Part shown: positions 362-45,928 of the stretch, in pieces | Layout: each line of letters starts with the position of its first letter | Numbering within the stretch: position 1 is the first letter of the stretch | NCBI GenBank assembly: GCA_013387215.1 | Contig: WARW01000022.1 | Coordinates: 5,357 to 69,356 of the forward strand | From: Patescibacteria group bacterium | Lineage (GTDB): Bacteria; Patescibacteriota; Microgenomatia; UBA12405 | Length of the DNA: 64,000 nucleotides | Reading direction: 5' to 3' | The notes under the pieces: generated by a model | What the model was told of the DNA's origin: nothing | Database searches by the model: none | Seen by the model: only the letters and a program-made list of their open reading frames with translations | Program-made: the position numbers and the translations under genes

Positions 362-859
362 TTAACGTTTTAAATTAATATACCAAGGTTGGTCTCCATT
401 TAACATTTTTGGAACTAATTCTGAGACTTCATCTGCTGATTCTGGCCAAACAGATTTTATATTTTTAAATATTTTCATCACTTCTCCATCCTCTTCTGAC
501 CAATGTGAAAAACCATCATGGGAATAATCTTTATCTCTTCCTGAACCAACTAAAATCATTGGTGTTTTTTCATGATCTACATAATTTCGTATTGTCTCGA
601 ATGGTCGATATAAAAGGAATGGAGTGATAGAAAAAACGATTGGCAGCTTTCCTTCTAGCGAAAGACCTGTGGCGATTCCAATTAGAGATTGTTCAGCTGC
701 ACCAACATTAAAGAATCGATCTGGGTACTCAGTTCTAATTTGATCCCAAATTCGATAACCAAGATCGCCTGTAACAACGACAATTCTTTTATCATTTTTC
801 ATCGCTTGATAAATTTCATCAGCAAAGCGTCGTCTTAGATTTTGATTATAGTCGATCAT
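362..859 (-). CDS. Transketolase C-terminal-section subunit (pyrimidine-binding domain only; short)
   Basis: GAAEQSLIGIATGLSLEGKLPIVFSITPFLLYRPFETIRNY is the transketolase Pyr-domain signature. It overlaps the upstream subunit gene by 4 nt. At 165 aa it lacks the usual C-terminal domain. Confidence 0.75.
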   Translation of the reverse strand: MIDYNQNLRRRFADEIYQAMKNDKRIVVVTGDLGYRIWDQIRTEYPDRFFNVGAAEQSLIGIATGLSLEGKLPIVFSITPFLLYRPFETIRNYVDHEKTPMILVGSGRDKDYSHDGFSHWSEEDGEVMKIFKNIKSVWPESADEVSELVPKMLNGDQPWYINLKR

Positions 860-1572
860 TTTAATGTCTCCATAGCTAATTCATAATCAGTGTTTTTCAT
901 AGTACAGTAATGAGCATCAAGACCATTTAAGAAGTGAAGCTGTTCTGAGGATGTTTTAGCAAAGATAATTGTTGGAGAGGTATTTTCTAATTTTAATTTG
1001 TCGACAATTTCGTTCGTATTGTGGCCGTTAGCTTTGATAATTTTGAAACCGAAACCTTTAAACCGATTTAATAAATCTTTTGAAGACACAGGATCATATG
1101 CTCCCCAACCGTTTATCGAGGCAATAATTTTTAGATTATTAACTTTCATATCATGAATAATACGTAAACTTTCCCAAATGCTTCCTTCTGCACATTCGCC
1201 ATCTGAAATTAGACAATATACATTTTTATTACGGTTTGCTAAGGCTATTCCAACCGCTATTGGTAACCCTTGTCCAAGACTGCCAGTGGAAACATCAATA
1301 CCAAGTGATGGGTTTCTGTCTGGGTGAACACCTAAAACGTGTAAATCTGGATCTTTTAAAAAGCCATATTTTTCAAGAACTGTGTATAAAGCACTAGCTG
1401 CATGTCCGTTGGAAAGTATAAATTTTTCATCTCTTTTTTTTACGGAATAAACAGCATCGATAATATCGATAACACTTAAGCAAGAACCGATGTGCGAGGC
1501 GTTGAATTTATATATAATTTCTAAAAGTCTTTTGCGAATTTGTTTTTGGTTTTTAGTTAAATTATTTTTCAT
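856..1572 (-). CDS. Transketolase N-terminal-section subunit (ThDP-binding)
   Basis: SNGHAASALYTVL, GSLGQGLPIAVGIALA and ISDGECAEGSIWESL are ThDP-binding PP-domain motifs (G-D-G..E/N). The gene is paired with 362..859 as a split transketolase. Confidence 0.8.
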   Translation of the reverse strand: MKNNLTKNQKQIRKRLLEIIYKFNASHIGSCLSVIDIIDAVYSVKKRDEKFILSNGHAASALYTVLEKYGFLKDPDLHVLGVHPDRNPSLGIDVSTGSLGQGLPIAVGIALANRNKNVYCLISDGECAEGSIWESLRIIHDMKVNNLKIIASINGWGAYDPVSSKDLLNRFKGFGFKIIKANGHNTNEIVDKLKLENTSPTIIFAKTSSEQLHFLNGLDAHYCTMKNTDYELAMETLK

Positions 1573-2462
1573 TTTTGAGCTTCTATACAGATATTACCTA
1601 ATTTTAGATTTATTTGTTGCTCTAAATATTTCGAATGTGAGTTTAATATTTTTAATTTTATAAGCCTAGGAAGCGGCATCAGCCAGAATAGATGCTTTAT
1701 GGACAATGTGTTTTTAGGAGAATAAATTCTAAGTGTTTTAAAACCATTTTTTTTGAAAATTACATTAATAGTTTTAGGGCTATAAAGGCAAGTATGCTCT
1801 ATATCAATAATCGGACTTTTTTCGCCTAGAATTTTGGAAGATAAGCTGTCTATGTTGTGATTAAACGAAAGTATAAAACCATTAGGTTTAAGAATTTTAA
1901 AACATTCTTTTAAATAATCATTTGGATTAGGAATATGGTCAAAAGTTTGAAAAAAGAAAATGAAATCAAAACTTTTTGGCTCAAATAAACCTGGCTTAAG
2001 AATGTTGATTTTAATATTTTTTTTAATTAATTTACTAGATTTATTAACAGCATCAATACTTGGTTCGACTCCAAATACATTTTTATAACCAAGTTTATAT
2101 ATCTTTTCTAAGACAAATCCATTGCCACAACCAATCTCTAAAATTTTTGCATTTTTAGGTATTTTTTTAAGTATTGGTTTTACACTATTTATATATGTAG
2201 ATGTTAGACTTTTTATTTCATCATCATAAGTGAGAAGACTTTTTTCATATAGTTTACTTAAAACATTACTATCTGCAACTGGATTAGATCGAACAAGTCC
2301 GCAAATTTTACATTTAACTAATTGATAGTGAATTTTATCTGGTAAGCGTCTGGCAGAAAAGACTTCTGTGTTAAGATCGCTAATCCTAAAATTTTTATAA
2401 TAGAGAATTTTATATTTTTTTTCACTTCCACAAATAGAACACTTGACGTTTTTAAGTTTCAT
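1569..2462 (-). CDS. Class I SAM-dependent methyltransferase with N-terminal Zn ribbon (TylCIII/NovU-type NDP-sugar methyltransferase-like)
   Basis: The N-terminus has C-x2-C ... C-x2-C (CSICGS...KCKICGLV), resembling the Methyltransf_13 zinc-binding domain. Motif I is LEIGCGNGF. It overlaps the transketolase gene by 4 nt. Confidence 0.65.
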   Translation of the reverse strand: MKLKNVKCSICGSEKKYKILYYKNFRISDLNTEVFSARRLPDKIHYQLVKCKICGLVRSNPVADSNVLSKLYEKSLLTYDDEIKSLTSTYINSVKPILKKIPKNAKILEIGCGNGFVLEKIYKLGYKNVFGVEPSIDAVNKSSKLIKKNIKINILKPGLFEPKSFDFIFFFQTFDHIPNPNDYLKECFKILKPNGFILSFNHNIDSLSSKILGEKSPIIDIEHTCLYSPKTINVIFKKNGFKTLRIYSPKNTLSIKHLFWLMPLPRLIKLKILNSHSKYLEQQINLKLGNICIEAQK

Positions 2463-2463
2463 A

Positions 2464-3399
2464 TTAATAAAATTTATGATTATTTTGAAACCAATCCCAA
2501 GTTAACTTTATCCCAGATTCTAGGTTAGTTTTAGGAATCCATTTTAATAACTGTCTGGCTTTGGAAATATCCGCAACCCAATTATTGGTATCCCAATTTC
2601 TGTTTTCCATACTTCCCCATTTAAAATTAGTGTTGCAACCAGTTACTTTGATAGCAGTTTCAATGACTTCTTTTATAGTTGATTGAACTCCTGTACCAAT
2701 ATTAAAATATTCTCCTGGATTGTTTTTAAGTTCATTGATTTTTAGATAAGCATCTACCATGTCGTCGATGTAAATTTGGTCTCGGGCTGTTTCTGGTGCT
2801 ACTAAATTCATTTCTTCTTTAAATAAGAGTGATTTCATTAGGGTTGGAAAAAATCTTTTCGGCTCTTCATATGGGCCATAAACTGAAAATGGACGGATGG
2901 TAACGATTGGTCTTTTTTCTTGTTTAGCTATATGGCTGCAAAGCAAAGTTTGAGCACATTTGGTGACAGCGTAATAACTTGCAGGTTCAACAATGTCAGT
3001 TTCCCTCATAGCAAAGCTTTTAAATCCATATTCAGAGGAACTGCCAGTATTCACAAATAAGTCATAGTTGATTTGATTGCAAGCTTGAAGCAAATTCCAG
3101 GTACCTAAAATATTAGTTTCAATGATAGCATTGGCGTCTTTTTGATAAGAATATGCACCATTTGTAGCAAGATGATAAATAATATTTGGATGAATCTTTT
3201 CTACTATTTCTGAGAGTTGAACAACATTTGAAAGATCTGAGTGATATATGGTTACTTTATCCAATAGGTCGTTGATTCTCCACGTATTTGATTGCTCTCT
3301 TAATATGATATGAACATTTTCTTTTTGGTCAACCAATTTTCTTAATAAAACTGAACCAATAAATCCTGAAGAACCAGTAATTAAATATGTTTTATTCAT
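2464..3399 (-). CDS. NAD(P)-dependent epimerase/dehydratase (extended SDR; NDP-sugar 4,6-dehydratase or 4-epimerase-like)
   Basis: TGSSGFIGSVLLRKL is the Rossmann GxxGxxG motif and YYAVTK is the catalytic YxxxK. Length is about 311 aa. Confidence 0.8.
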   Translation of the reverse strand: MNKTYLITGSSGFIGSVLLRKLVDQKENVHIILREQSNTWRINDLLDKVTIYHSDLSNVVQLSEIVEKIHPNIIYHLATNGAYSYQKDANAIIETNILGTWNLLQACNQINYDLFVNTGSSSEYGFKSFAMRETDIVEPASYYAVTKCAQTLLCSHIAKQEKRPIVTIRPFSVYGPYEEPKRFFPTLMKSLLFKEEMNLVAPETARDQIYIDDMVDAYLKINELKNNPGEYFNIGTGVQSTIKEVIETAIKVTGCNTNFKWGSMENRNWDTNNWVADISKARQLLKWIPKTNLESGIKLTWDWFQNNHKFY

Positions 3400-3480: not shown

Positions 3481-5358
3481 ATGTTTAATTTCGATAAAAT
3501 TATTTCTAAAAAGAAAAACCATCTTTTTGGTTTATTTTTATTATTAATAATAGGATTTGTTGTTTTTGATAATTTTTCTAAAGCTTGGATAGTTGAATCT
3601 GATTCATTACATTTTTATATTTTAGCTAGAAGTGGAGGTTTCTTTGACTTAATTAGAAATTTCTTTCTTTCTGATTTATCTTTAGGTCGATCGACTTTTT
3701 TTATTGCAATCTGGTATAGGATTACGTTTATTTTTGATAATTTTATATATTTCAAAACGGTTTATTTTTTATTTTTAAGCTTAGATATAATTCTGTTTTC
3801 GTTTTTACTAAAAAAGATTTTTGGCTTTTCGAAAATGTTTTTATTTATACCCTTACTTATATTATTGTGTTTTTTACAAAATAGTTGGCATCCAAATGGA
3901 GTAGTTGTTTTTTCAAATGTATTTTCCGGATCATTAAGTTTTTTATTTCTTTCATTGATTTTATATATAAAGTATCTTGAAACAAACAAAAAATATTATA
4001 ATTTTTTAAGTTTGTTTTTGTATACGTGTTCATTGTTCACATATGAATTGTATGTTTTATATTTTTTGTTTTTCATAGCAGTGGCGATAAAAAATTTAAA
4101 TAAAAATAATGGATTTAAGGATTTAATTAATAAAATAAAATTCCAAGTTTTACTACTTTCTTTATATCTCTTTGTTTATTTCTTAGTTAAGCATTTTGCA
4201 TCATCTAGTTATGCTGGTGTTACGGTAAGTGGTAGATTTAGCTTAATTAATTCTGTGAAAACAATTTGGCAATTTAGTGTTTCTTCTATTCCTGGGTATA
4301 TGTTGATTTTTGATAAATGGGCTGGAAACATGGAATTGTTTAAAAACACAATGTTTTATGGTTACAGATCCATACTCTTAAATATTCAACCTATATGGAT
4401 TATAAAGTTTGTTTCTGTTTTTAGTTTATTTTATATAGTTACAAAAAATACTAAGCCCGAAAAAAACTATAAGTTCTATATTTTAAATTTAATTTTAGGA
4501 ATAACTTATTTTTTTATACCTCCGGTTTTATTGTCGTTAACGTCACATTACCAGAACATCGTTTTAAACAATGTTTTTTTATCTGAGCCAGTAACGTTGT
4601 TTTCTTTTTTTGCTTTTGTTTATGTTTTTGTTACTTTATTAATTATATTAATAAAATTAATAAATAATTTTTATTTAAAAAATTATTTATTAATGTTTAT
4701 TGGTCTTTGTATTGCGTGTATAGGGCTCGCTGTAGATTATTCAAATTTTGGTTATTCACAATCACAGGAATTGTCGCATTATAAATGGGAAATTGTTAAT
4801 AGGTTTATTAATACTAATGAGTTTAATAATATTCCTGAAAACTCATTTATATATGCTCCAACTCTGTTTAATGGTATCGGTACTGTTGTTGTTGATGATG
4901 ATGATTATTGGAGTAATTATGTATATGTGAAAAGTGGAAAAAAAATTATAATTACAAAAGATATCAGTAAAATTAGCTTAAATAATGGGTATTTTTTAAA
5001 GTATGATCAACAATTGAAAGATAAAGAACAATATCTGGTATTTTCTAAAGTGTTTGCACTTGATGAAACAAAAAAACTTTTCTATTCCAGTAATGCAGAT
5101 ATATATTATTATTCAAAATATAATAATTTTAATATCTTAGGTTATTTTGACGGTTCCAAATGCAAAAAAAAGGAAGAAATTCAAATTGAAAATAAAAAAG
5201 TGCCTGATGTTTCAAATAATTTTGTTTATAATATTGATCCTTCAAATTTTAAAGTTGAAAATAGTTTGAAGAGAATTAATGTTTCATCTCAAGATAAGTG
5301 CGGCTCATTGCGCTTAAATGATTTTGTCGTTTTTCCTGGTTATATTAATAATCAATAG
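3481..5358 (+). CDS. Polytopic membrane protein with C-terminal soluble domain, unknown family (possible GT-C-like)
   Basis: The 625-aa ORF has a very hydrophobic N-terminal about 400 aa with many predicted TM segments and a soluble C-terminal about 200 aa. I recognised no catalytic motif. Confidence 0.5.
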   Translation: MFNFDKIISKKKNHLFGLFLLLIIGFVVFDNFSKAWIVESDSLHFYILARSGGFFDLIRNFFLSDLSLGRSTFFIAIWYRITFIFDNFIYFKTVYFLFLSLDIILFSFLLKKIFGFSKMFLFIPLLILLCFLQNSWHPNGVVVFSNVFSGSLSFLFLSLILYIKYLETNKKYYNFLSLFLYTCSLFTYELYVLYFLFFIAVAIKNLNKNNGFKDLINKIKFQVLLLSLYLFVYFLVKHFASSSYAGVTVSGRFSLINSVKTIWQFSVSSIPGYMLIFDKWAGNMELFKNTMFYGYRSILLNIQPIWIIKFVSVFSLFYIVTKNTKPEKNYKFYILNLILGITYFFIPPVLLSLTSHYQNIVLNNVFLSEPVTLFSFFAFVYVFVTLLIILIKLINNFYLKNYLLMFIGLCIACIGLAVDYSNFGYSQSQELSHYKWEIVNRFINTNEFNNIPENSFIYAPTLFNGIGTVVVDDDDYWSNYVYVKSGKKIIITKDISKISLNNGYFLKYDQQLKDKEQYLVFSKVFALDETKKLFYSSNADIYYYSKYNNFNILGYFDGSKCKKKEEIQIENKKVPDVSNNFVYNIDPSNFKVENSLKRINVSSQDKCGSLRLNDFVVFPGYINNQ

Positions 5359-5362
5359 AGAG

Positions 5363-6058
5363 TTATTTATTTTTTTTGAGAACAAGTTCCCAGCCATAAA
5401 AATAACCTCTTTTCAAGGTTAGTTCTTTTCTAAAAACATTGGCTAAATATGATATTTCTTCTTTTTCTATATATTGAATTCCTCTACCTTTAAAATCAAA
5501 TAAATTTTCAAACCACAACCAATCATCTTCAATGGGAGAACAAGATAATAACTCGAAACCATTTTGGGAAAAAAGTTTAACAATAGAGTCTTTGGTAAGT
5601 TTTTGAATATGTCCTCCACCTTCTGGATGAATCAGGTGATAAAAAATATCTGTAAAATTAGTTGACTCTGGAAAAGCAGCATAAACTATGCCATTTGGCT
5701 TAATAATACTAGTTATTCCCTTAATAAGATTTTCTGGATTAGTCACATGTTCGAGAACATGATTAGCGACAACCATGTCAAATTTTTTGTCCCAATTAAC
5801 AATTCTTTTAAAGAATTTTTTAAAAGGCAGGTTTATATATTTTTCGATTTTATCTTTTGGTTTGATTTCGTGAAGGCAAGATGCGTCAAGCTTGTATATA
5901 TTTACATTTTTAGGAAAATGTTTCGGAAAGAAATAAAGATCTATTCCTGTAATCTTGGCTTTTTGATCAATTAATGACCACCAGTGACTTCCGTTTGGTC
6001 CTGTGCCAATATCAAATATATTTTGTTTATTTTTTAAATATTTTTTTATGCCTATCAT
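5363..6058 (-). CDS. Class I SAM-dependent methyltransferase
   Basis: DIGTGPNG is motif I and VVANHVLEHV is the post-I acidic/hydrophobic motif typical of Methyltransf_11/23. The stop overlaps the upstream fusion gene by 4 nt. Confidence 0.7.
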   Translation of the reverse strand: MIGIKKYLKNKQNIFDIGTGPNGSHWWSLIDQKAKITGIDLYFFPKHFPKNVNIYKLDASCLHEIKPKDKIEKYINLPFKKFFKRIVNWDKKFDMVVANHVLEHVTNPENLIKGITSIIKPNGIVYAAFPESTNFTDIFYHLIHPEGGGHIQKLTKDSIVKLFSQNGFELLSCSPIEDDWLWFENLFDFKGRGIQYIEKEEISYLANVFRKELTLKRGYFYGWELVLKKNK

Positions 6059-8931
6059 TTATTTTCTGGTAAATAATGATGTTTCTGCCAAGTTGTATTC
6101 CATTTATCTTCAAATAATTTTTTATTAGTTTCAAAAATTATTTTATATTCATCGGTTTCAATTTTTTTAAATGAAGCTCCTCCAAAATGATGAATAAAGA
6201 TATCCCGTGCGCAAAGTATTCTGAGACCAGCAAGCTTAACTCGATGACAATAATCATCATCTTCAAATAATCCCCTGCCAAACCTTTCATCCAAATTGCC
6301 TATCGATTGATGAGTGTTTTTGGACATTATCCAGCAAAAAGCGGCTATGTTTCCAAGTTCTAATGATTTACCCCAATTTGCAGAAGTATATTCTCTTGCT
6401 TTTGATTCAAGTTTTTTTTGATTTTTAGGATCGTAGTCTATGTCTATTTTTGCCTCATTTCCAATACTATTAGTTACAGGACCAACTAATCCTACATTAT
6501 TTTTTTTACAATAAAAAATTAAACGAGTAATCCACCCTGGTGTAATTAATACATCGTTATTAAGTAAAATTATATAATCTCCAGAGGCTTCACTTAATCC
6601 AATATTATTGCCTTTTGCAAAACCATAATTATTTTTATTAAAAATTATTTTAACGTTCTTGTTTTTTGAATATTCTTTAATAACCTTCTTTGTTTCATGG
6701 TCTGAATTGTTATCAACAATTATTAGTTCGTAATTAGGAAAGAATGTTCGTTTTAAAATACTATCAATAGTGTTTCTGGTCATTTCCGGATTATTGTAAG
6801 TAAGTAAAATAATGCTAGTTTTAGGGAAAATATTATTTTTAATAATTTCTAATAACTGTTCTGCTCGTTTATCCCAGGTGTTGTTTTTGGCAATTAATTG
6901 TCTTTCTTCAATATTTTTATTCTTGTTTTTTATGGCTAATTTAATTTGATTGCTAAAATTTGTTTTATTACTGAAATAAATATTGTCTTTAAATTCTAAG
7001 ATTTCAGGCATTTCTGTGGTTACAACTGGTTTTCCAGCCGCAAAATATTCAAAAATTTTTACTGGATGAGTTGCTTTAATTAATTCATTCAAAATAAAAG
7101 GAATCATGCATACATCAAAGTGTTGTAGGTATGAAGGTAATGAATCATATGGTTTTTCGCCAAGCAGATGAATGTTTTTATATTTATTAGCAAGCTTCTC
7201 GATTTTATCGTTAGTTACATTACCAATCAATACAAAGGAAATGTCTCTATTTTTTTGAGCAATATCTTCTAAGATTTCTGTATCAAACCACTCTGCTATC
7301 GCACCATAATAGCCAACAATTGGTTGTGAAATATTTTTTAAATCATCGGGGATATTAAACGTGCAATGACTAGCAGTTTCGAAATGATTATAATCACCAG
7401 CATTTTTAATCAAAGAGATGCTCTTTGCTTGTTTGTTTTGGGCTAATTTTTCTAAATAATTAGACGTGGTAATTGTAATGTCTGATTCAGTAAACAGTTT
7501 TTGTTCCAAATCAATATTATTTGTTCCGTTTTCATTAAAACCTTGATGATTATCCATACAATCATATACAGAAGGCATTGCTATATCATTTAAAATATGA
7601 GCCCAAAATGGATGATCTATTTTTGCAATAGGATTAATAATATTAGCTTTATATAACAATGTTTTAATTGAAGCTAAAATAATTTTTTTATCAGTTGCTG
7701 AGGGGGTTTCATTATAAATGAAGAGATTTCTAGATGCAGAGAGTGTTACTGCATAAACATTATTTGTTTTTTTAACTATTTTAATTGGTGCAAAGACATT
7801 CTTTGCATTTTTATATGGAAGAAATTCGTTTTCAATATAAAAAACTCGATTGTTTTTTGTTGCAATATTTGCTGCTAATTGTTGGGGTCTTTGATATCTA
7901 AAATCCCAAGAGATAACGCTAAAATTAATTAAATCAATACTATCTTCACTTCTTTTATTGTTTCTCCATTCTTCTAAAATTTCTTTAGAAATGTTGATTT
8001 TTGGGTTATTAAATAATTTTGCGCTAATGGTGGCTTTAAGTTGTTTTCTTAGTTTAATTGGTATAATTTTCTTTACAATTTTTTTGATTAAAAAACTAAT
8101 TTTTTTGTATATGCTTAATATTTTCCAAGTTTTTGATGCATAAATTTTGTTTAGAGTTTGAGAGTATTCAGTAATCTGTTTTTCGTCTTGATTTACTTTT
8201 TGAGTTAATGAATCAACATTTTTTGTAAGTATTTCATTCTGTTTTTGAATTGTTGATATAAACACATCACTATTCTCTTTTTTATTTATAGTCGAATAAG
8301 CAGGTATACTGGAAAGATCAGTGTTTTTGATATTAGAATATACTAATATTAGCTGTTTTCCTGGCCAAAAGGTGTTTTGTATACGTGATGTATCTGTGAC
8401 TCTAAAAAATGATAGATAAAAATCTTTTTCCTGGAGATTAAAACTATCAAAATCAAAACTAGACAAATGTTCTTTAAATTTATTTTTTTCTTGAAATGGT
8501 ATTTGAAGGATTAAATATTTTTTTGTTTTTACTAACAACTTTTCAAGTTTTTCTTTTGGATTTTCAAAATGTTCTAATGTATTAGAACAATATAAGACGT
8601 CGTAAGATTTAGACAATTCATTTATATCTTCAACTCTGAATTGTAAATTTGGATATTTCTTTTTAGCTTTATTTATTGCAATCTTTGAAAAATCGACTCC
8701 TTCTGCTTTTATCTTTTTAAATTTTTTAGAAAAAATTTCAACACATTGACCTTCAGCGCAACCTATATCACAAAGCGTAAGTTTGTTATTTTCAAACTCG
8801 TTTATCAACCAACTAGGTAGATTTTTTAGTGCAATATTACAAAAAAAGCTTGTTTGTTCTGGTCCGCTGTTTGTTTCCCAATCGGTTTCGAACCTGTTAT
8901 CCCAATAGTTTTTATCATTTATTTTTGTCAT
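6055..8931 (-). CDS. Multidomain methyltransferase / coiled-coil / GT4 / GT2 glycosyltransferase fusion (WbdD/WbbB-like architecture)
   Basis: The N-terminus carries LCDIGCAEGQ...VLYCSNTLEHFENP, a SAM methyltransferase domain. The middle is K/E/Q-rich, a predicted coiled coil. A GT4 core follows (FDVCMIPFI...IFEYFAAGKPVVTTEMPEI). The C-terminus is GT2 (SIILLTYNN...ELIIVDNNSDHET...LLNNDVL...EDDDYC). Confidence 0.75.
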   Translation of the reverse strand: MTKINDKNYWDNRFETDWETNSGPEQTSFFCNIALKNLPSWLINEFENNKLTLCDIGCAEGQCVEIFSKKFKKIKAEGVDFSKIAINKAKKKYPNLQFRVEDINELSKSYDVLYCSNTLEHFENPKEKLEKLLVKTKKYLILQIPFQEKNKFKEHLSSFDFDSFNLQEKDFYLSFFRVTDTSRIQNTFWPGKQLILVYSNIKNTDLSSIPAYSTINKKENSDVFISTIQKQNEILTKNVDSLTQKVNQDEKQITEYSQTLNKIYASKTWKILSIYKKISFLIKKIVKKIIPIKLRKQLKATISAKLFNNPKINISKEILEEWRNNKRSEDSIDLINFSVISWDFRYQRPQQLAANIATKNNRVFYIENEFLPYKNAKNVFAPIKIVKKTNNVYAVTLSASRNLFIYNETPSATDKKIILASIKTLLYKANIINPIAKIDHPFWAHILNDIAMPSVYDCMDNHQGFNENGTNNIDLEQKLFTESDITITTSNYLEKLAQNKQAKSISLIKNAGDYNHFETASHCTFNIPDDLKNISQPIVGYYGAIAEWFDTEILEDIAQKNRDISFVLIGNVTNDKIEKLANKYKNIHLLGEKPYDSLPSYLQHFDVCMIPFILNELIKATHPVKIFEYFAAGKPVVTTEMPEILEFKDNIYFSNKTNFSNQIKLAIKNKNKNIEERQLIAKNNTWDKRAEQLLEIIKNNIFPKTSIILLTYNNPEMTRNTIDSILKRTFFPNYELIIVDNNSDHETKKVIKEYSKNKNVKIIFNKNNYGFAKGNNIGLSEASGDYIILLNNDVLITPGWITRLIFYCKKNNVGLVGPVTNSIGNEAKIDIDYDPKNQKKLESKAREYTSANWGKSLELGNIAAFCWIMSKNTHQSIGNLDERFGRGLFEDDDYCHRVKLAGLRILCARDIFIHHFGGASFKKIETDEYKIIFETNKKLFEDKWNTTWQKHHYLPENK

Positions 8932-17923: not shown

Positions 17924-19483
17924 TGTTTTTATTCTTATTTTAGAAATAGTGGATTTTTGGTTAATTAATTCTTGAATCAGAAATTTGAATTGGTGAACAT
18001 AATTCATCTTTCTTTTTGATCTTAAGACGATTGATAAATATCGAGGGCTTAAATGAAAAATAATATTTGGAAGAATTCGATTGAATTTGTTATTTTGAAA
18101 ATTAGACCAAGATAAAATATCAATTTTATGTTTGGAAAATCGATACTTTTGAGGAAATTTCTTAATTAGAAGTGGAGCAGAGGCTAGTTCTAAATATTCA
18201 TTTTTAGAAAAGTGATATGGGCTTTGATCATAAATTTCTGTGCCAGGATATGGAGTAAATACATTTATACTGACGATATCTGGTTTAAGTTTTTCAGTAA
18301 AATGGACTATATCATTTAGGTCTTTTTTGGTTTCATTGGGAAGATTGACTAAAAAGTTAGCAAAAGTCCTTATATGGTATTTTTGGCAAAGTTTAAAAAT
18401 ATTAGTAATCATTTCAACTGATATACCTTTTTTTACATCGTTTAGAGCTTGGTTAGAACCTCTCTCGACACCAAAATCTATTTGTACACATCCAGCTTGG
18501 GACATTATTTTTAATAAATTTTCATTAAGAGTTGAGACTTTTGAAGAACATCCCCAAAGCAAATTAAGTTTTTCTTTTTTGAGAAGAGTACAAAATTCTT
18601 TAACATTGTCTTGATTAATCGTAAAAAGATCATCAATAAAATAAAAACTGTCAATATTATATTTATTATATAAATGTTTAATTTCTTTAATTAAGTTTTT
18701 AGCTGATCTGACACGGGTGTATCTTCCCCCACCATTATAACCACGAAGTTTTTTAGCTACACAAAAAGTGCAAGTTGAAGGGCAGCCTCTTGTTGCCAAT
18801 AGATAGGCAGATCTTAAAAAGCAGCCACGAATAGAATATGGCGAGGCGTTTGAATAATATTCCATATCTATTTGGTCATAGTCGGCATATGAGATTTTGT
18901 CGAGGTCTTCTTGGAGAGGTCTTAATGGTGTTTTAATAATTTGCTTAGTTTTTTTGTCGTTGTAAGCAATACCTTTTATTTGAGAGAAATCTTTTGTTTT
19001 CTTTTTGAGTGCTGTTACTAATTCAAAAAGTGTTTCTTCCCCTTCTCCAATTATTTCAAAATCGACTGGTGTATTTTTTTCGTTAAGTAATTCATCTGGG
19101 TATAGTGTTGGATGAATTCCTCCAATGATAATTGTGGCTTTTGGATTAATTTCTTTTATTTTTTTAGCAAGATTTAGGACTTCAAAATATTCGGGTGTGT
19201 AACATGTTATGCCGTAAATATTGGTAGTATTATTTTTGATTTGTTCGATCATTTCATCTTCAATTGATTGTCGATATTTATCAATTTGATCAAAAAATTT
19301 TTTATCACGGATAACAGTCTTTTCAGTTACATCTATGATTTTACAGGTTAGTTTTTGGTGTTTAAGATATCCAGCTAAATAAATCAAAGCCATTGGTGGA
19401 CGGTAGTGATTAAAACTTCGTGAGGGTGGAGACAACAAAATAATGTCGAAATTTTTTTTCATAATTTTTTTTAAGTGTAACAT
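17903..19483 (-). CDS. B12-binding domain radical SAM protein (class B radical SAM), paralog
   Basis: DIILLSPPS...MALIYLAGYLK is a B12-binding-type N-terminus. ATRGCPSTCTFCVA is Cx3Cx2C. The gene overlaps 16439..17923 by 21 nt in convergent orientation. Confidence 0.8.
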   Translation of the reverse strand: MLHLKKIMKKNFDIILLSPPSRSFNHYRPPMALIYLAGYLKHQKLTCKIIDVTEKTVIRDKKFFDQIDKYRQSIEDEMIEQIKNNTTNIYGITCYTPEYFEVLNLAKKIKEINPKATIIIGGIHPTLYPDELLNEKNTPVDFEIIGEGEETLFELVTALKKKTKDFSQIKGIAYNDKKTKQIIKTPLRPLQEDLDKISYADYDQIDMEYYSNASPYSIRGCFLRSAYLLATRGCPSTCTFCVAKKLRGYNGGGRYTRVRSAKNLIKEIKHLYNKYNIDSFYFIDDLFTINQDNVKEFCTLLKKEKLNLLWGCSSKVSTLNENLLKIMSQAGCVQIDFGVERGSNQALNDVKKGISVEMITNIFKLCQKYHIRTFANFLVNLPNETKKDLNDIVHFTEKLKPDIVSINVFTPYPGTEIYDQSPYHFSKNEYLELASAPLLIKKFPQKYRFSKHKIDILSWSNFQNNKFNRILPNIIFHLSPRYLSIVLRSKRKMNYVHQFKFLIQELINQKSTISKIRIKTLNTERF

Positions 19484-19528
19484 AGGCTGATATATTTGTT
19501 GAAAAATATTGTTAGGTTATAATGGCTT
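19484..19528. promoter_or_regulatory. Divergent intergenic region between two class-B radical SAM genes (putative promoters)
   Basis: This is a 45-bp AT-rich gap. The minus-strand radical SAM gene is embedded in an otherwise plus-strand operon, so it needs its own promoter here. Confidence 0.3.
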
Positions 19529-20977
19529 ATGAGTTTGAAAACAAAAAATAATGATGTGGATATAGTTCTAATAAGCAGCCCGATGGTTTTGTATAAAAAC
19601 AAAAAGGATAAAAAAGAAAATTTGAATGAAGATGGAGACGAAAAATCATATTATCCGATAAATATTTTATATTTGACAGCATATTTAGAAAAATTTGGAC
19701 ATAAAGTAAAGATAATCGATGTTTCAATGGAAGGGTTAACTTTGGATCAAGTTGTAAAAAAGGTTGATTTAATAAATCCTAAAATGATTGGAATTTCATC
19801 AATGACAACCAGTATTCAGTCGGCAGTTACTTTGGCAAAAGCTTTGAAAAAGAAAGGTAGAACAATTGGACTTGGCGGTGTTCATTTGACTTGCGATCCT
19901 ACTTTTATAGATCGATTTCCAGTGTTTGATTGGGGAATTGTTGGAGAAGGTGAAGTTACATTATTGGAACTAGTTGAAAAAAGTAAAAAAGGAGAAAAGA
20001 TTAAAGGATTATTTCAAGGAAAAAGAATTGAGGATTTAGACACAATCCCTTTCCCTGCTCGACATCATGTGAGAATGGAAGATTATCGTAGAAATGAAGA
20101 ATCTGAAGTGCCAGCTGCAGGAATATTGGCTAGCCGAGGATGTCCTTACAACTGTGTTTTTTGCTGTATTCCAGCTAGAGGAAAGATGGTTAGGTTTAGA
20201 TCTCCAAAGAATATTGTCGATGAAATGGAAGAGATTTATGAAGAATGCCAAGGGAAATATTCGTTCGTGGATGATTGTTTTACTATAAATAATAAATGGG
20301 TTTCCGAACTTTGCCAAGAAATAATGGATAGAAAGATGAAGGTTAGTTTTGTGGCTTCAACTAGAGCCGATACTTTAACCTTAGAAATGGCGAAAATGAT
20401 GAAAAAGGCTGGTTGTACTGATTTATTTTTAGGAATCGAAAGCGGTAATGACAAAATAAGAAACGAAGTTATTGGTAAAAGATTAAAATATGAAAATATA
20501 GTTAAAGCTGTAAAAATATGCCGAAAGGTAGGAATATTGTCTAATTTATTTTTAATGGTTGGATTTCCTGGAGAAGGTATAAAAGAAGCATTAGATACGG
20601 TTAGAATTGGTGGAAGAATTAAGGCAGATATTATTGGAATTCATGTGACTATTCCAATGCCTGGTTCAAGAATTTATGACTATGCTATTCAAAATAAATT
20701 AATTCCAAAAGATATTATTGATCGATGGGCAAGTGGTAAATTGGGACGAGTGTGGCGAAGCAATTGGCCATTATTTGTTCCTGAAGGCATGACTTTGAAG
20801 AAATTGTTTTGGATAAAAAGAATCACTTACATGTATTTTTATTTCTCCCCTTTTTGGTGGTATAGAAGAATCAAATTATGGTTCAAATCTAGCAAAATGT
20901 TTTTTGCTGATATGAGAATGATGAAAATTGCTTTTCATGCATTCACAACCGGCGGAACAAAAGGACAGCTATCTTAA
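19529..20977 (+). CDS. B12-binding domain radical SAM protein (class B radical SAM), paralog
   Basis: DIVLISSP...INILYLTAYLEKFGH is a B12-binding-type N-terminus with a K/D/E-rich insertion. ASRGCPYNCVFCCIP is Cx3Cx2C. Confidence 0.8.
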   Translation: MSLKTKNNDVDIVLISSPMVLYKNKKDKKENLNEDGDEKSYYPINILYLTAYLEKFGHKVKIIDVSMEGLTLDQVVKKVDLINPKMIGISSMTTSIQSAVTLAKALKKKGRTIGLGGVHLTCDPTFIDRFPVFDWGIVGEGEVTLLELVEKSKKGEKIKGLFQGKRIEDLDTIPFPARHHVRMEDYRRNEESEVPAAGILASRGCPYNCVFCCIPARGKMVRFRSPKNIVDEMEEIYEECQGKYSFVDDCFTINNKWVSELCQEIMDRKMKVSFVASTRADTLTLEMAKMMKKAGCTDLFLGIESGNDKIRNEVIGKRLKYENIVKAVKICRKVGILSNLFLMVGFPGEGIKEALDTVRIGGRIKADIIGIHVTIPMPGSRIYDYAIQNKLIPKDIIDRWASGKLGRVWRSNWPLFVPEGMTLKKLFWIKRITYMYFYFSPFWWYRRIKLWFKSSKMFFADMRMMKIAFHAFTTGGTKGQLS

Positions 20978-28736: not shown

Positions 28737-30224
28737 TTAAGAAAAGTCCTTTAATTTTTGAATATATTTAATTCCATAATTGGCCAAGAATTTTATATCG
28801 TAGATTGATCTTATGGATAATATTTTTCTTATAATAAATTCTGGATTAATAATACCTTTGAATAGACTTTGAACTAAATTAAATTGTTCTTGTGAAGTTA
28901 AAGATGTTTTAATAATCGGTTGCCGCATGTCATAATCATCCCAATCAGTGGTAAGAAGCAGATTATTGTCTTCACAATATTTAAAAAGCGGGGTGCCAGG
29001 ATATGGAATTACGATAGTGGCTTGCATACTATCGGCTAGACCTTTTTTAAAAATTTGTCTGGCTCTGTTTAATGTTTTTTCGATATCTTTTCTGGATTCC
29101 CAAGGATAGCCAATCATGATGGTAATGTGTGGTTCAAGGTGGGCATTTTTTACAAGCGTAAGAGTGTTGACTGCGTTTTTAACTAATTCGTTTTTGTTAA
29201 TTAAATCAAGAGTTTTTTGATTAGAAGACTCTAATCCATATAAAATAAATCTAAATCCAGCTTTTGACATTAGATTGTATTGTTCTTGATTAAGTGCACC
29301 AAAACGCATATTACAGCCTATTTTTACTTTTTTATTTAATCCTCTTTTAATTAATTCATCGCAAAGTTCTTTAAGCCAGGGACCGACTGGTAATGTGCCA
29401 GAATCATCAAATATTTCTTTTACATTAAAATTATTGACAAGGTTTTCAATCTCAGCGAGAGTATGTTTAACAGAAAAAGATCGAAAAGACTGTCCTGGAA
29501 AAATTGTAGTCCAAGAACAAAATGTACATTTACCCCACCAACAATCTCTTCCGGACATAATATAGGCACCAGGTTTATATTTGTAATTAGTATTGTTATA
29601 GGCGTAAAGATGCCACTTAGTTAGTTTTCGATCAATGATAGGCAGAACATCAAGATTGTGATGTTTTAATGAAAATTTACCAGAATTACAAATTTTATTT
29701 TTATCTCGATACCAAAAACCTGGTGCTAGTGGTTTTTTATTGTATAAATGATCAACTAAATTAGCCAACATAAAATCATAATCGCCACCTGTGAGTATGT
29801 AATCAACTGAAGAATATTTTAATGACTCTTCTGGCAGGGCGGTGACATGATCACCCATTAAAACTATTACGGGTTGAGATTTTTTAGAAAAATTAGCTTT
29901 AATATCTTTTATAATTTGCCAATGTTTTTTAACGACTGGAGTTTTTGTTTCTAAAACAATTATTTTAGGATTTTTATTTACTAATCTTTTAAGCCAAACA
30001 TTATATGAAATTTTTTCAGCAATGGCATCATCCCAAAATATTTTATAACCTTTTTTTTGAAGATATGTTGCAGCATATGCAGGAATAACTGGAAAAATTA
30101 CATTACCAGTGTTGGTCCATTGAAATTGGCGATTTTGAGTTAAAAAAGGTGTTCCTTTAGAGGAATCTAGTGGTGGATATGAAATAGATATTAATATTTT
30201 TTTTGTTGTCAATTTAGCCTCCAA
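28737..30224 (-). CDS. B12-binding domain radical SAM protein (class B), fourth paralog with a variant Cx4Cx2C cluster motif
   Basis: The N-terminal B12-type fold pattern is ILISISYPP...PAYAATYLQKKGY. SGRDCWWGKCTFCSW reads as C-x4-C-x2-C. Downstream it resembles the other three paralogs. Confidence 0.7.
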   Translation of the reverse strand: MEAKLTTKKILISISYPPLDSSKGTPFLTQNRQFQWTNTGNVIFPVIPAYAATYLQKKGYKIFWDDAIAEKISYNVWLKRLVNKNPKIIVLETKTPVVKKHWQIIKDIKANFSKKSQPVIVLMGDHVTALPEESLKYSSVDYILTGGDYDFMLANLVDHLYNKKPLAPGFWYRDKNKICNSGKFSLKHHNLDVLPIIDRKLTKWHLYAYNNTNYKYKPGAYIMSGRDCWWGKCTFCSWTTIFPGQSFRSFSVKHTLAEIENLVNNFNVKEIFDDSGTLPVGPWLKELCDELIKRGLNKKVKIGCNMRFGALNQEQYNLMSKAGFRFILYGLESSNQKTLDLINKNELVKNAVNTLTLVKNAHLEPHITIMIGYPWESRKDIEKTLNRARQIFKKGLADSMQATIVIPYPGTPLFKYCEDNNLLLTTDWDDYDMRQPIIKTSLTSQEQFNLVQSLFKGIINPEFIIRKILSIRSIYDIKFLANYGIKYIQKLKDFS

Positions 30225-33111: not shown

Positions 33112-33938
33112 TATTTTTTATCCCAATCATTTAATAAATTGATTTGACGTTTTGTTTTTTCAAGTTCCCAATATTTGGTGTAAGTAATGGGAAAACGCAA
33201 ACTCGAATAAAAGGAGAAAACAAACCCAGGAAAGCCATCGTAAAATCCTTTATGCCTGAAATAAGTTGATAAAAACCAGTATAAAGGTTTGAATAAATAA
33301 TAATTCATAAAGTTAAAGAAACTTATTTTTGTTTTCTTTTGTTGAAGCTCTTGAGCTAGTAAAGTAGTATATCGATTGTGTCGTAATAGATAATGGGAAA
33401 AAGAAGTGTCAGCATAGTGTTCCAAATCATGTTTTAGCCAACCAACTGTGCCTTTAACTTCAGCTTGTTCGTGTACATCTTTGCATGGCAAGCGGCCGGT
33501 TCCATTTTTATAGAAACGAATCGTTGGATCAGGATACTGCCCACCTTTTTTTAGAAATGAACCGAGAAAATAATTTTTTCTTTTAATCCAAAACCCATTG
33601 TCTTTTATATCGATTGGAGATTTTTCTAAGATGGAAATTATTTCATTTTTCAATTCTTTTGTGACGATTTCATCGGCGTCAAGTTGAAGTATCCAATCAC
33701 TTTTACAGGCATCAATAGCCATATTTTTATTAATATGAAAAATCGGTTTATTAGTGGTTTTAATAATTTTTACTTTCTTATATTTAGAAGATAATTCAAT
33801 AGTTTTATCTTGAGAACTTCCATCGGCAATAACTACCTCATCCACCCAATCAATTACAGCATTGAGACATCTTTGAATATTATTTTCTTCGTTATAAGTA
33901 GCAATTGCAATTGAAATAGTAGCTTTTTTTACTGTCAT
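33111..33938 (-). CDS. GT2 glycosyltransferase
   Basis: ISIAIATYNEENNIQRCL...VVIADGSSQDKT...LDADE. It resembles 55398..56192 and 57104..58039. Confidence 0.8.
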   Translation of the reverse strand: MTVKKATISIAIATYNEENNIQRCLNAVIDWVDEVVIADGSSQDKTIELSSKYKKVKIIKTTNKPIFHINKNMAIDACKSDWILQLDADEIVTKELKNEIISILEKSPIDIKDNGFWIKRKNYFLGSFLKKGGQYPDPTIRFYKNGTGRLPCKDVHEQAEVKGTVGWLKHDLEHYADTSFSHYLLRHNRYTTLLAQELQQKKTKISFFNFMNYYLFKPLYWFLSTYFRHKGFYDGFPGFVFSFYSSLRFPITYTKYWELEKTKRQINLLNDWDKK

Positions 33939-35581
33939 TGTTTTATATAAATATTAAATGCTGGTTGACCGTTCGGAAAATTGATTGTTTTTATTGGACT
34001 TGCACTTACTTGTTCATCACTAGCTACAACTAATGAATTAGAAGATATATTGTTCCAATCAATTTTTTCAAAGTTATATTTATCATAATGCCTAACGGTC
34101 GAAAAACCAAATTGATCAGGAGTAGATAGCTTTATTTCTTTTTGAATAAGTTCAGGCGGGTATTTTGAAAAAAATAAGAAGAGAATATAAGGTTGATCGT
34201 ATTTGTCGGTTATATAGACTTGATTAAAATTTGATTTATTTTGCTCAATATAAGGAACTAGTTGATCGAATCCATATTGCCAAGCAAATGGATATCTTTT
34301 GGCGTAATGTAGAAAATAAGAATCCAAATAAAATGCAATATTATATATATAAAATATGACTAAAATAGGCAATAAAATTGTTTTTAGTTTATATGTTTTA
34401 ATTATTTCTAAAAATTGATAAATACCTAATGACACTAAAACAGATAATGGAATAACCATTGGTAGAGCTCTTAAAGCTGATGGTGCTTGAAAAGTTAATG
34501 ATGAGGCAAGCGGAGCAATTAAAAGCCAAGAAAGAAATAATTTGGTAAAGTTTTTATTTTTAATTAATCTACTGTTTAAAATTATGACTATTCCTAGTAA
34601 TAAGAATGGAAGTTCAAGAATGTACAGCTGCCCCATTTCGGGTACTTTTGATCGGGGAACTTCATCACCGTTTATAAATAAGAAATTAGGATTAAAGTGA
34701 GAAGTATATTTTTCTCCCCATGAAATTAAGTACAAAACTCTTTTGTTGTGGATTATGCGATTAATAAGTTTTACATTGGCATGCTGATTTATTAATTCGT
34801 TGGCACGATTAATTGGACCTTGATCAGCGGTTATACCTACTCCTCCAAAACGAGCAGCCCCTCCACTGTGAAGAAAAGAAGTTAAAACTGGTATTGCTAA
34901 AATAGCGCCTAAGATTATTGGTAAAACAACCTGTGGTAATTTTGATTTGATGAAATTAAATTGAAAAACAAAAAGACTTAATGCTAAAACTGGGGCTACA
35001 ATGCGGACTGAATGATAAATATAGAGTGATAATACAAAAAAACAAATAAAAAGGCTGAAGTTTAATAAAAACCTTTTTTCAATTGACTTAAAGAAAAAGT
35101 AGGTTCCAATAACTAAAAAGGAAAGTGCAGATGATGATTCCCACCCTCCCCGACTAAAGTGTATATGCCATGGAGAGAAAGCTAAGACGGCAGCAGATAT
35201 TAGTGCCAATTTATTATTTTTACTTAATAGCAAAACTAATTTATAAAGGAAATATATTGTTAAAATCGAAAGAATTAAATTAGGCAATCGGACTGCGAGT
35301 GGTGTTAATCCAAGTAATTTAACAAAAGGCAGTACAAGATAAAAATAACCACCTGGTTTAAAATCACCAAAAGATTTGAAATGAAGTGGCCATGATACGC
35401 CATGTTCATCTTTTCCTGTTTGTATAAGTGAATATACGTTGTAACCAATAGCAGCTTCATCTGGATTTAAAGCAGGAGTAGTTCCAATTTGAAAAAAACG
35501 GATAGAAATTGCAGCAATTAAAATTAATATTAAAAGTATGTTTTTATGGATTTTCGTAAGCATAGAAGGTTGAGATACCAT
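33935..35581 (-). CDS. GT-C glycosyltransferase, GT39/GT83 PMT/ArnT-like (PMT_2 family)
   Basis: It is polytopic. The first periplasmic loop carries TTPALNPDEAAIGYNVYSL...HFKSFGDFKPGGY, the DE motif of PMT/ArnT-type GT-C enzymes. The C-terminal domain shares the conserved GY.EA..Y......Y.I....G.PY..LFY..YPP pattern seen across the array. Confidence 0.75.
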   Translation of the reverse strand: MVSQPSMLTKIHKNILLILILIAAISIRFFQIGTTPALNPDEAAIGYNVYSLIQTGKDEHGVSWPLHFKSFGDFKPGGYFYLVLPFVKLLGLTPLAVRLPNLILSILTIYFLYKLVLLLSKNNKLALISAAVLAFSPWHIHFSRGGWESSSALSFLVIGTYFFFKSIEKRFLLNFSLFICFFVLSLYIYHSVRIVAPVLALSLFVFQFNFIKSKLPQVVLPIILGAILAIPVLTSFLHSGGAARFGGVGITADQGPINRANELINQHANVKLINRIIHNKRVLYLISWGEKYTSHFNPNFLFINGDEVPRSKVPEMGQLYILELPFLLLGIVIILNSRLIKNKNFTKLFLSWLLIAPLASSLTFQAPSALRALPMVIPLSVLVSLGIYQFLEIIKTYKLKTILLPILVIFYIYNIAFYLDSYFLHYAKRYPFAWQYGFDQLVPYIEQNKSNFNQVYITDKYDQPYILFLFFSKYPPELIQKEIKLSTPDQFGFSTVRHYDKYNFEKIDWNNISSNSLVVASDEQVSASPIKTINFPNGQPAFNIYIKQ

Positions 35582-45330: not shown

Positions 45331-45928
45331 TTAAAAGAAGAATATTGAGAATTATCAGAATAATTATAAATAAAGAAACATGAACTAAATTTCTTTGATG
45401 AAAAAGATTGATTTGTTCCATTATTGTATTCTTAAATGAGCTTTTAATACTTCCTGATGTATATGTAGTCTTATAATCAATAGATTTATCTTTTAAGTTT
45501 CCATACACAAAAAGCGTGTCTGTTTTGGGATTGTCTGAAGTCAATTTTATAAAAAATTTATCACCAGATTTTGATGGAACAAATGGAAATTTAAAAGAAA
45601 TCCAGCTTGGATCGGCAATACTTACTCCTGATGTGGTTAATGATCTGATTATATTTTTGTTGTTATCAAGGAGTTCAATGTTGACATGGCTGGTATTTTG
45701 CAAAGCAGGATTTTTAAGAAGAACCGAAACCGTTTGCAAGTTACTTTTATCGGTTATTATTTCTTGGGTATAACTATTTTTAGTATCAAGTGAAAGAGTA
45801 TTTTGAAAACTTGTTTGAGAAATTCCAGGTCGTTCTTTAATAAATAATGAAGGAAGAATGACCAAAATAAAAATCAAGAATAGAGTTTCAGATACAATTA
45901 ATATTAATATTTTATTTTTCTTTTGCAT
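45320..45928 (-). CDS. Small bitopic membrane protein (N- and C-terminal TM helices flanking a beta-rich about 140-aa domain), unknown function
   Basis: The 202-aa ORF has hydrophobic helices at both ends and an S/T/N/K-rich central domain. It overlaps neighbouring genes by 11 nt and 17 nt. Confidence 0.5.
   Translation of the reverse strand: MQKKNKILILIVSETLFLIFILVILPSLFIKERPGISQTSFQNTLSLDTKNSYTQEIITDKSNLQTVSVLLKNPALQNTSHVNIELLDNNKNIIRSLTTSGVSIADPSWISFKFPFVPSKSGDKFFIKLTSDNPKTDTLFVYGNLKDKSIDYKTTYTSGSIKSSFKNTIMEQINLFHQRNLVHVSLFIIILIILNILLLISL

Follow-up and report, generated by a model that had tools for sequence, protein, structure and literature searches.

A candidate methyl-capping, single-polypeptide glycan assembly enzyme linked to wzm/wzt in a probable Patescibacteria bacterium

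Results

A methyltransferase, a helical spacer and two glycosyltransferases in one polypeptide

We analysed a 64-kb stretch of contig WARW01000022.1, hereafter the window, with respect to a gene on its minus strand at 6055..8931. Within DNA of 28% G+C (28-30% for the stretch), this gene encodes a 958-amino-acid (aa) protein in a single uninterrupted frame that opens with ATG, a start that is well placed because homologs align to the protein from residue 1. The first-pass annotation had described the product as a four-part fusion of a methyltransferase, a spacer and two glycosyltransferase (GT) domains, and had proposed a chain-terminating polymerase of the WbdD or WbbB kind. The four-part anatomy (methyltransferase, helical spacer, GT-B, GT2) was borne out by Pfam, with matches above the curated cut-offs, by AlphaFold2 modelling and by Foldseek comparison. 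The AlphaFold2 model, computed from an alignment of 105 homologs, reached a predicted local distance difference test score (pLDDT) of 92.4 and a predicted template modelling score (pTM) of 0.76. Its first 200 residues fold as a Rossmann-type methyltransferase; a long helix (residues 221-265) is followed by a pair of shorter ones (267-289 and 292-306), after which come GT-B in two lobes (333-701) and a GT-A unit (705-944). Database searches returned 207 relatives, many of them with 99-100% coverage, 33-56% identity and an identical domain order, which is kept in many phyla. Judged by their conserved residues, all three catalytic modules look active. The features of the gene are listed below.

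8332..8931, minus strand: class I S-adenosylmethionine (SAM)-dependent methyltransferase, residues 1-200, proposed chain-capping terminator (Pfam, conserved residues, AlphaFold2)
8272..8331, minus strand: flexible loop from methyltransferase to helix, residues 201-220 (low pLDDT; no secondary structure predicted)
8137..8271, minus strand: single 45-residue helix, residues 221-265, candidate coiled-coil spacer or ruler (AlphaFold2, heptad score)
8014..8136, minus strand: junction motif and two basic amphipathic helices, residues 266-306, candidate in-plane membrane anchor (hydrophobic moment, composition)
6838..7935, minus strand: GT-B fold glycosyltransferase of the Pfam GT1 clan, TuaH-like, residues 333-698 (Pfam PF13692, PF00534, PF13524)
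6058..6837, minus strand: GT-A fold GT2 glycosyltransferase, residues 699-958 (PF00535); the stop codon follows at 6055-6057

Within the methyltransferase module, modelled as a Rossmann fold with pLDDT above 90, residues 49-145 match the Pfam methyltransferase families PF13847 (47 bits), PF13489 and PF13649. When aligned with 58 methyltransferase-bearing homologs, the module matched every column conserved at 90% or more, and a cleaner homolog set agreed. The SAM-binding residues are conserved, and the retained positions include D55, G57, C58 and G61 of motif I, G78, D80, F81 and S82 of the acidic loop, D111, the stretch S116, L119, E120, H121 and F122, and also P145 and H155. In a profile search of solved structures, the BamL/BpumL methyltransferases came closest. 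A WbdD-like methyltransferase was absent among the best 60 of 105 structure matches (E <= 1) obtained with the methyltransferase-domain profile, a weaker match being possible. The sole segment of the model with pLDDT below 50, residues 212-226, falls mostly in the loop that follows the module (212-220) and continues into the start of the helix.

The spacer helix carries a heptad pattern and varies in length across the family

The first-pass annotation had pictured the spacer as K/E/Q-rich and probably a coiled coil. We judged the coiled coil by a home-made heptad score with 200 shuffled sequences as control. The score peaked at a value of 22 at residues ~219-266 only, staying at or below 16 elsewhere and at or below 14 once the neighbouring amphipathic residues 266-306 are set aside. 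Shuffling gave peak scores of 16.6 ± 1.7 on average, with 22 attained in one of the 200 shuffles. Residues 225-263 make up 5.5 heptads, in which 10 of the 12 a/d positions are hydrophobic (a: I225, N232, V239, V246, I253, L260; d: I228, L235, L242, D249, Y256, I263). Such a heptad pattern agrees with the first-pass picture, whereas the K/E/Q enrichment is mild, at 31% in helix 221-265 vs 21.5% in the whole protein. At ~1.5 Å per residue, the helix would extend over ~6 nm, and it probably forms an oligomeric coiled coil.

Comparing the 58 homologs revealed that the segment between the methyltransferase and a junction motif at the end of the helix spans 48-203 aa, with a median of 91.5 and 66 aa in the window protein. 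The distance from the junction motif to the GT-B module is nearly fixed (67-101 aa, mode 90), and length variation in the family is confined to the helix before the motif. The motif, SxSW[RK]xTxPLR, is present in the family consensus and degenerate in the window protein (ASKTWK; ASKTWKILSIYK). It lies at the membrane-proximal end of the helical spacer and is common to proteins with unrelated polymerase modules, namely of the WbbB type, the GT2-GT2 type and the GT-B/GT2 type. Examples are P0233 (NSLSWRLTIPLR, residues ~530-545), P0240 (SSTSWKLTSPLR, ~479-492) and the Pseudomonas protein P0101 (NSHSWKLTSPLR, ~304-316). P0233 served as our stand-in for WbbB. It was reached by rebuilding 103 residues of the solved GT99 from a PDB alignment and proceeding via fragments to WbbB-type representatives; its identity to the solved GT99 fragment of WbbB is 72%, and its modules are GT99_N, Glyco_trans_1_2-like and GT25-like. 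From its distribution among these sequences, SxSW[RK]xTxPLR may be a general hallmark of terminator-spacer-polymerase proteins.

Following the motif, residues 270-292 have the highest hydrophobic moment of the protein, 0.60 against a mean of 0.24 (SD 0.11), and segment 266-306 contains 29% Lys and zero acidic residues. WbdD, as described in PMC11231755, has an amphipathic helix at its base; by analogy, the basic amphipathic helices of residues 266-306 could act as an in-plane membrane anchor.

The two glycosyltransferase modules retain family-invariant residues

In the GT-B module, residues 547-675 match Glyco_trans_1_4 (49 bits) and Glycos_transf_1 (41 bits), and together with Glyco_trans_1_2 the matches span residues 547-695. 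Among solved structures compared by Foldseek, the module resembles MshA-type enzymes, with a target-normalised template modelling (TM) score of 0.72 to MshA (3c4q). The family-invariant residues R345, Q347, R348, Q350, D457, D460, E592, K625 and E628 are all present. The module had been assigned to GT4 by the first-pass annotation; the GT-B fold and the GT1-clan Pfam matches fit, while the first Glu of the usual E-x7-E motif is absent, the second (E628) alone being present. The GT4 label is reasonable but unverified. TuaH and TuaG identities were rejected, as the NCBIfam scores of 90 bits (E 1e-25) and 62 bits fall short of cut-offs of 550 and 400, respectively.

The C-terminal GT2 assignment was upheld. 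Residues 706-828 match Glycos_transf_2 (PF00535; 102 bits, E 3e-29), the GT2 signature is preserved in the family-invariant N791, N792 and D793 and in E890, D891, D892 and D893, and D910 and H915 are likewise invariant. The GT-A module matches the chondroitin polymerase K4CP (E 1.6e-15) and, in the Foldseek comparison with solved structures, resembles ppGalNAc-T- and chondroitin-polymerase-type enzymes. Together, the GT-B and GT-A modules would form a processive polymerase.

The fusion gene lies beside transporter, epimerase and second methyltransferase genes

The following genes surround the fusion gene.

5363..6058, minus strand: stand-alone second methyltransferase, 231 aa (Pfam PF13489, E 3e-15)
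8995..9825, plus strand: radical-SAM/SPASM gene, 276 aa, between wecB and the fusion gene, overlapping the wecB end by 4 nt
9822..10904, minus strand: uridine diphosphate (UDP)-GlcNAc 2-epimerase of the WecB type, supplying UDP-N-acetylmannosamine (ManNAc) (Pfam PF02350, E 3e-114)
10905..11636, minus strand: Wzt/TagH-type ATP-binding cassette (ABC) transporter ATPase, 243 aa (ABC_tran and generic P-loop ATPase families; NCBIfam TagH and galactan Wzt)
11639..12463, minus strand: Wzm-type ABC-2 permease (Pfam PF01061; NCBIfam galactan Wzm and KpsM)
12447..13529, minus strand: Acyltransferase_3 membrane protein (Pfam PF01757, E 2e-25)

As described at first pass, wzm/wzt lie 2 kb upstream of the fusion gene, and the Wzt is short, with an ABC_tran domain and no binding module; the intervening opposite-strand radical-SAM/SPASM gene and the epimerase gene had been omitted from that description. 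Since these two genes intervene, the fusion gene would not be co-transcribed with wzm/wzt. Promoter-like sites were not commoner than in shuffled sequence (36 vs 43 ± 7) and therefore say nothing on the transcription unit. The epimerase gene begins 1 nt past the wzt stop codon. A Wzt_C match was absent from every neighbouring open reading frame (ORF) in Pfam. On the other side, the second methyltransferase gene is translationally coupled to the fusion gene by the 4-nt overlap noted earlier, which we read directly as ATGA. Its product is only remotely related to the fused methyltransferase, and its homologs lie immediately downstream of the corresponding gene in three of the related loci described below (L001, L008 and L015).

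wzm, which begins with TTG, shares its first 17 nt (12447-12463) with the Acyltransferase_3 gene. This overlap suggests that O-acetylation is co-expressed with export, and the Acyltransferase_3 protein probably O-acetylates the same polymer.

Related loci reveal a modular family linked to wzm/wzt and wecB

A scan with one genome per species detected relatives in at least 588 species. Full-length homologs covering 99-100% of the query occur in Pseudomonas, Leptotrichia, Cupriavidus, Janthinobacterium, Lysobacter, Stenotrophomonas and Bacillota, and have cultured carriers that include Pseudomonas, Leptotrichia and a clostridial isolate. The closest relatives show up to 65% identity over the polymerase part; the few with a name belong to Patescibacteria (Shapirobacteria among them) or Margulisiibacteriota. 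Of these closest relatives, many are without the methyltransferase yet keep the helix and junction.

We surveyed 83 loci, that is, 82 related loci and the window itself, considering the neighbourhood within 10 kb. A Wzt homolog was found at this distance in 45 of the 83 loci and an epimerase gene in 41, often directly adjacent. In L001, the syntenic locus nearest to the window, a single strand carries wzm, wzt, wecB, the polymerase gene and the second methyltransferase gene, and the position of the radical-SAM/SPASM gene is empty. Synteny with L001 and with the Patescibacteria locus L013 extends over a transmembrane tetratricopeptide-repeat (TPR) protein, a CofD-like protein, wzm, wzt, wecB and the polymerase. 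From this synteny and the G+C content of 28-30%, the host is probably a Patescibacteria bacterium; tRNA, rRNA and Rfam features gave no help with this assignment. Linkage is also preserved at a large phylogenetic distance: the full-length homolog of Pseudomonas kurunegalensis (35% identity) directly follows wzm and a 424-aa Wzt with Wzt_C, and is itself followed by wecB. This set resides within a classical O-antigen locus containing rml genes and a Glycos_transf_4 (PF00953) initiating-transferase gene of the WbpL/WecA type.

The region upstream of the GT-B module falls into three classes, namely a window-type methyltransferase, a short stub of helix and junction, and other modules. The latter comprise different methyltransferase families, a sulfotransferase-like module, GT17 plus methyltransferase, and a hexapeptide acetyltransferase plus Capsule_synth; three Pfam methyltransferase types occur among the N-terminal modules. 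The Capsule_synth domain of the acetyltransferase fusion matches the solved WbbB GT99 and KpsC beta-Kdo transferases. The modularity of the family is underlined by GT99 modules fused to a window-type GT-B in P0351 and L055, the latter with 36% identity over residues 333-953.

Wzt lengths in the survey are bimodal, at 213-293 or 391-675 aa. Long and short Wzt proteins number 29 and 9 in loci with an N-terminal module vs 2 and 5 in loci without one (Fisher p = 0.023, for loci that are not phylogenetically independent). Among the 12 window-type methyltransferase loci with Wzt, 10 have the long form and two, the window and its closest relative L001, the short one.

The closest studied homolog is required for an O-antigen in Aeromonas salmonicida

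ORF20 of A. salmonicida A450 ('WbbB', 1122 aa) shares 37% identity with residues 227-955 of the window protein (E 2e-150). This colinear match begins in the last part of the spacer and takes in the junction motif as well as both transferase modules, GT-B and GT2; directly downstream of ORF20 lies wecB. Deletion of ORF20 abolishes a Wzm/Wzt-exported O-antigen with a rhamnose (Rha)-ManNAc backbone, for which methylation analysis identified 3-substituted ManNAc, 3,4-substituted (some 4-substituted) Rha and a terminal Glc branch (PMC4483657). Unlike the window protein, ORF20 has no methyltransferase in its N-terminal 380 aa; no Pfam family matched up to residue 430, and Sulfotransfer_3 is matched by close homologs. 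The ORF20 system further differs in that its Wzt is a 438-aa protein with Wzt_C and its product is the lipopolysaccharide (LPS) O-antigen of a diderm. According to PMC4483657, ORF20 contains a capsule-synthesis domain and is 63% identical to WbbB of Klebsiella. We did not reproduce this identity, as a database search with ORF20 gave Aeromonas-type proteins only and none from Klebsiella or Raoultella. The locus of the protein that PMC4483657 likens to WbbB is represented in our survey by L048 (4047-7415, A. salmonicida ATCC 33658).

The window is a glycosylation island

The entire 64-kb window is a glycosylation island. At least 12 more stand-alone GT2 or GT1-clan genes are present, and two regions, 33935-42258 and 45912-53323, contain runs of at least eight large GT-C-type membrane proteins (PMT_2, PMT, YfhO, GT87-like), near which several ORFs of 435-578 aa have no Pfam match. 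A Wzx-like flippase is encoded at 59706-61160. Three consecutive B12-binding radical-SAM genes at 16439-20977 and a fourth radical-SAM gene among glycosyltransferase genes at 28737-30224 suggest C-methylation or another radical modification of sugars.

Beside wzm, and divergent from it, two plus-strand genes at 13560-16442 encode a CofD/YvcK-like protein and a TPR-repeat protein, the latter apparently multi-transmembrane as judged by eye. Both genes are kept at that position, with 50-65% identity, in L001 (4372-7064) and in the Patescibacteria locus L013 (2904-5587), and their products may be part of the same export or assembly system. Convergent with the second methyltransferase gene and 4 nt past its stop, the plus-strand gene at 3481-5358 encodes a 625-aa protein that by eye is multi-transmembrane with a soluble tail of ~190 aa; it has no Pfam or NCBIfam match and no homolog in the related loci at E 1e-8. 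Downstream of the fusion gene and its coupled partner, the minus strand at 362-3399 encodes a split transketolase (165 + 238 aa), a NAD-dependent sugar epimerase/dehydratase and a 297-aa methyltransferase with an apparent N-terminal Cys-rich (CxxC) segment by eye. These genes may constitute a pathway for a branched or chain-extended sugar.

Discussion

A proposed mechanism of methyl-capped chain assembly

We consider it probable, with moderate confidence, that the 958-aa protein is a single-polypeptide, methyl-capping assembly enzyme for a lipid-linked surface glycan exported by an ABC transporter. According to this proposal, the basic amphipathic helices of residues 266-306 would hold the enzyme on the cytoplasmic face of the membrane, where the GT-B and GT-A modules would alternate in polymerising a disaccharide repeat. 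Given the conserved adjacency of wecB, one of the sugars is probably ManNAc, presumably beta-linked and derived from the UDP-ManNAc of the adjacent epimerase; by analogy with Aeromonas, the other could be a 6-deoxyhexose such as L-rhamnose. Located at the far end of the ~6-nm helix, the methyltransferase would O-methylate the non-reducing end of a chain that has become long enough to reach it, and elongation would stop. As the spacer comprises 5.5 heptads, the product is expected to be short, with a few to ~10 repeats. The coupled second methyltransferase could place one more methyl group, with the cap or the repeats as its target. The neighbouring Wzm/Wzt would export the lipid-linked glycan. 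Because the host is probably a Patescibacteria bacterium, an LPS O-polysaccharide is an unlikely product.

Several observations weigh against this proposal. The case for a coiled coil is built on a home-made heptad score and a monomer model in which the helix has pLDDT values of 48-88; the 66-aa spacer is the fourth or fifth shortest among the 58 homologs; and length differences between homologous spacers are not enriched in multiples of seven (0.145 of pairs vs 0.143 expected, P = 0.29). This last result is uninformative, and the coiled coil is not refuted by it. At the level of the locus, the opposite-strand radical-SAM/SPASM gene separates the fusion gene from wzm, wzt and wecB, and within the 64-kb window we recognised no rml genes (rmlA-D), initiating phosphoglycosyltransferase or ligase; the rml genes could be located elsewhere in the genome. 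The 243-aa Wzt has no Wzt_C or other C-terminal domain in Pfam, while according to PMC11231755 all terminated systems characterised so far have a Wzt carbohydrate-binding module that reads the cap. An N-terminal module paired with a short Wzt of 213-263 aa that has no binding module is found in 9 of 38 loci from several phyla (L021, L022, L029, L039, L045, L047, L068, L001 and the window). Its appearance in these nine loci marks the pairing as a recurrent minority state, not an oddity of this contig.

Cap-gated export is therefore not supported here, and with the module missing there are two cases: export may proceed without gating by the cap, or internal residues may be the target of the methyltransferase. 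For the former case, we tentatively put forward, as a doubtful proposal, that in a probable Patescibacteria host, devoid of LPS, a methyl-capped glycan is exported by a Wzm/Wzt without a cap-reading module, with termination and export uncoupled or the cap read by another component of the locus. The minimal spacer would then set a short, defined oligomer, perhaps destined for protein or cell-wall glycosylation by the nearby GT-C enzymes. More generally, a terminator without a binding module may represent a distinct, unstudied mode of the ABC-transporter pathway.

The latter case is the main rival explanation. Here, the GT modules polymerise as proposed, but the fused methyltransferase modifies internal residues of the repeat, the helix serves as a dimerisation element or tether, and the length of the chain depends on how polymerisation is coupled to export, as it does in uncapped systems. 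A Wzt without a binding module is indeed the state of uncapped systems, as exemplified by the short-Wzt loci that have no N-terminal module, and the coupling of a second methyltransferase to the gene and the shortness of the spacer fit as well. On the other hand, the fused methyltransferase takes the distal place filled elsewhere by modules (GT99/KpsC-like) that attach one terminal residue, and this position matches that of the methyltransferases of WsaE (PMC2943079) and Klebsiella pneumoniae O7 (KpO7) ORF6 (PMC11231755), which are proven terminators. Moreover, the long Wzt extension in 10 of 12 methyltransferase-type loci with Wzt points to capping, and a conserved helix of variable length is hard to explain for an enzyme that decorates repeats. 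Internal methylation is thus in our judgement unlikely, though it deserves serious consideration.

We assign a distinctly lower probability to a non-processive, bifunctional enzyme that adds one residue per GT module, for example as an adaptor or side branch, and methylates the product, the polymerase being encoded elsewhere in the island. The island would have room for such a division of labour, with its at least 12 other GT2 or GT1-clan genes, at least eight GT-C-type proteins and a Wzx-like flippase, and GT domain matches alone do not establish processivity. Against it, the gene keeps its link with wzm/wzt and wecB in different phyla, also in transferase-poor loci such as L003 of Pseudomonas, deletion of the A. 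salmonicida homolog abolishes the whole O-antigen (PMC4483657), and a spacer that bears an exchangeable distal module typifies polymerase-terminator proteins (PMC11231755). Finally, decay of the gene to an inactive remnant, or an accidental fusion without coordinated function, can practically be discounted: we found no point in support of either, the absence of an identical protein from the public collection having no bearing on activity, and the uninterrupted 958-codon frame, the retention of all family-invariant residues in the three modules, the model pLDDT of 92.4 and the full-length homologs at 50-56% identity all speak against it.

Implications

If the proposed assembly enzyme is taken as the basis, a large and mostly unannotated family, labelled just 'glycosyltransferase' in databases, gains a confident functional annotation. 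The family can be regarded as a modular platform in which an exchangeable terminator and a putative disaccharide polymerase are joined through a variable-length helix and a conserved junction motif. In the window, it would be central to an ABC-transporter-dependent pathway for a surface glycan, in a bacterium that probably belongs to the candidate phyla radiation, a group whose envelope chemistry is, to our knowledge, almost unknown. The recurrent combination of a terminator with a module-less Wzt does not accord with the rule at present derived from Klebsiella and E. coli; apart from this combination, the data confirm known biology.

Comparison with known terminator-spacer-polymerase systems

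In WbdD, WbbB and KpO7 ORF6, the polymerase resides at membrane level and the terminator at the far end of the spacer, and only chains that reach it are capped, as laid out in PMC11231755 and PMC9587256. The window protein shares with this class a distal candidate terminator module, a helical spacer that is short for the class, glycosyltransferase modules and linkage to wzm/wzt, whereas the cap-recognising C-terminal carbohydrate-binding module on Wzt is absent. With respect to the WbdD/WbbB likeness proposed at first pass, the terminator-ruler-polymerase logic therefore fits, given the wzm/wzt linkage, the variable spacer and the swappable N-terminal module. Cap-gated export and a common origin of the catalytic modules are not supported; as regards these modules, the window protein is an analogue and not a relative.

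WbdD of E. coli O9a/O8 likewise has its methyltransferase distal on a coiled-coil ruler with an amphipathic membrane helix at the base, but it is a separate protein that recruits the polymerase WbdA, and its O9a form has a kinase domain. Membership of the WbdD family was rejected, as the polymerase is fused in the window protein and Pfam detects no kinase domain in it. WbbB of Raoultella terrigena and K. pneumoniae O12 (GT99, helical spacer, GT102, GT103) resembles the window protein in its layout of distal terminator, spacer and membrane-associated two-module disaccharide polymerase (PMC9587256, PMC11231755), and both proteins have a junction motif of the SxSW[RK]xTxPLR type at the end of the spacer. 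WbbB differs in its beta-Kdo transferase terminator and its module-bearing Wzt; the window protein contains no GT99, there being no PF21912 or PF05159 match in Pfam. Homology to the WbbB polymerase was rejected, since P0233, the closest available WbbB-type protein, aligned with the window protein at a BLAST E of 2.

KpO7 ORF6 (MN173773), by its description in PMC11231755, begins with a methyltransferase terminator, continues with a coiled coil and ends in two polymerising GT modules, with wzm/wzt as neighbours, an arrangement like that of the window protein. It differs in its length of 1414 aa, its kinase domain, its immunoglobulin-like binding module and its methyl-phosphate cap, and its polymerase modules are both of GT2, in comparison with GT-B plus GT2 here.

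WsaE, which participates in S-layer glycan synthesis in Geobacillus stearothermophilus, also unites an N-terminal capping O-methyltransferase and two repeat-building GT domains in one polypeptide, and its gene overlaps the wzm/wzt genes (PMC2943079). Compared by description, it differs in that both GT domains are rhamnosyltransferases producing a poly-rhamnan, and it is not known to act as a ruler. Because WsaE comes from a monoderm bacterium and its product is not LPS, it is the best analogue for a Patescibacteria host.

The architecture is thus already known from WsaE and KpO7 ORF6 and is widespread, which makes the annotation sound and not surprising; what is unusual is confined to a spacer of minimal length, a Wzt that bears no binding module and a host that is probably a Patescibacteria bacterium. 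In sum, the comparison by architecture supports the view that the window protein is a functional analogue of WbbB, KpO7 ORF6 and WsaE, and a new member of the terminator-spacer-polymerase class.

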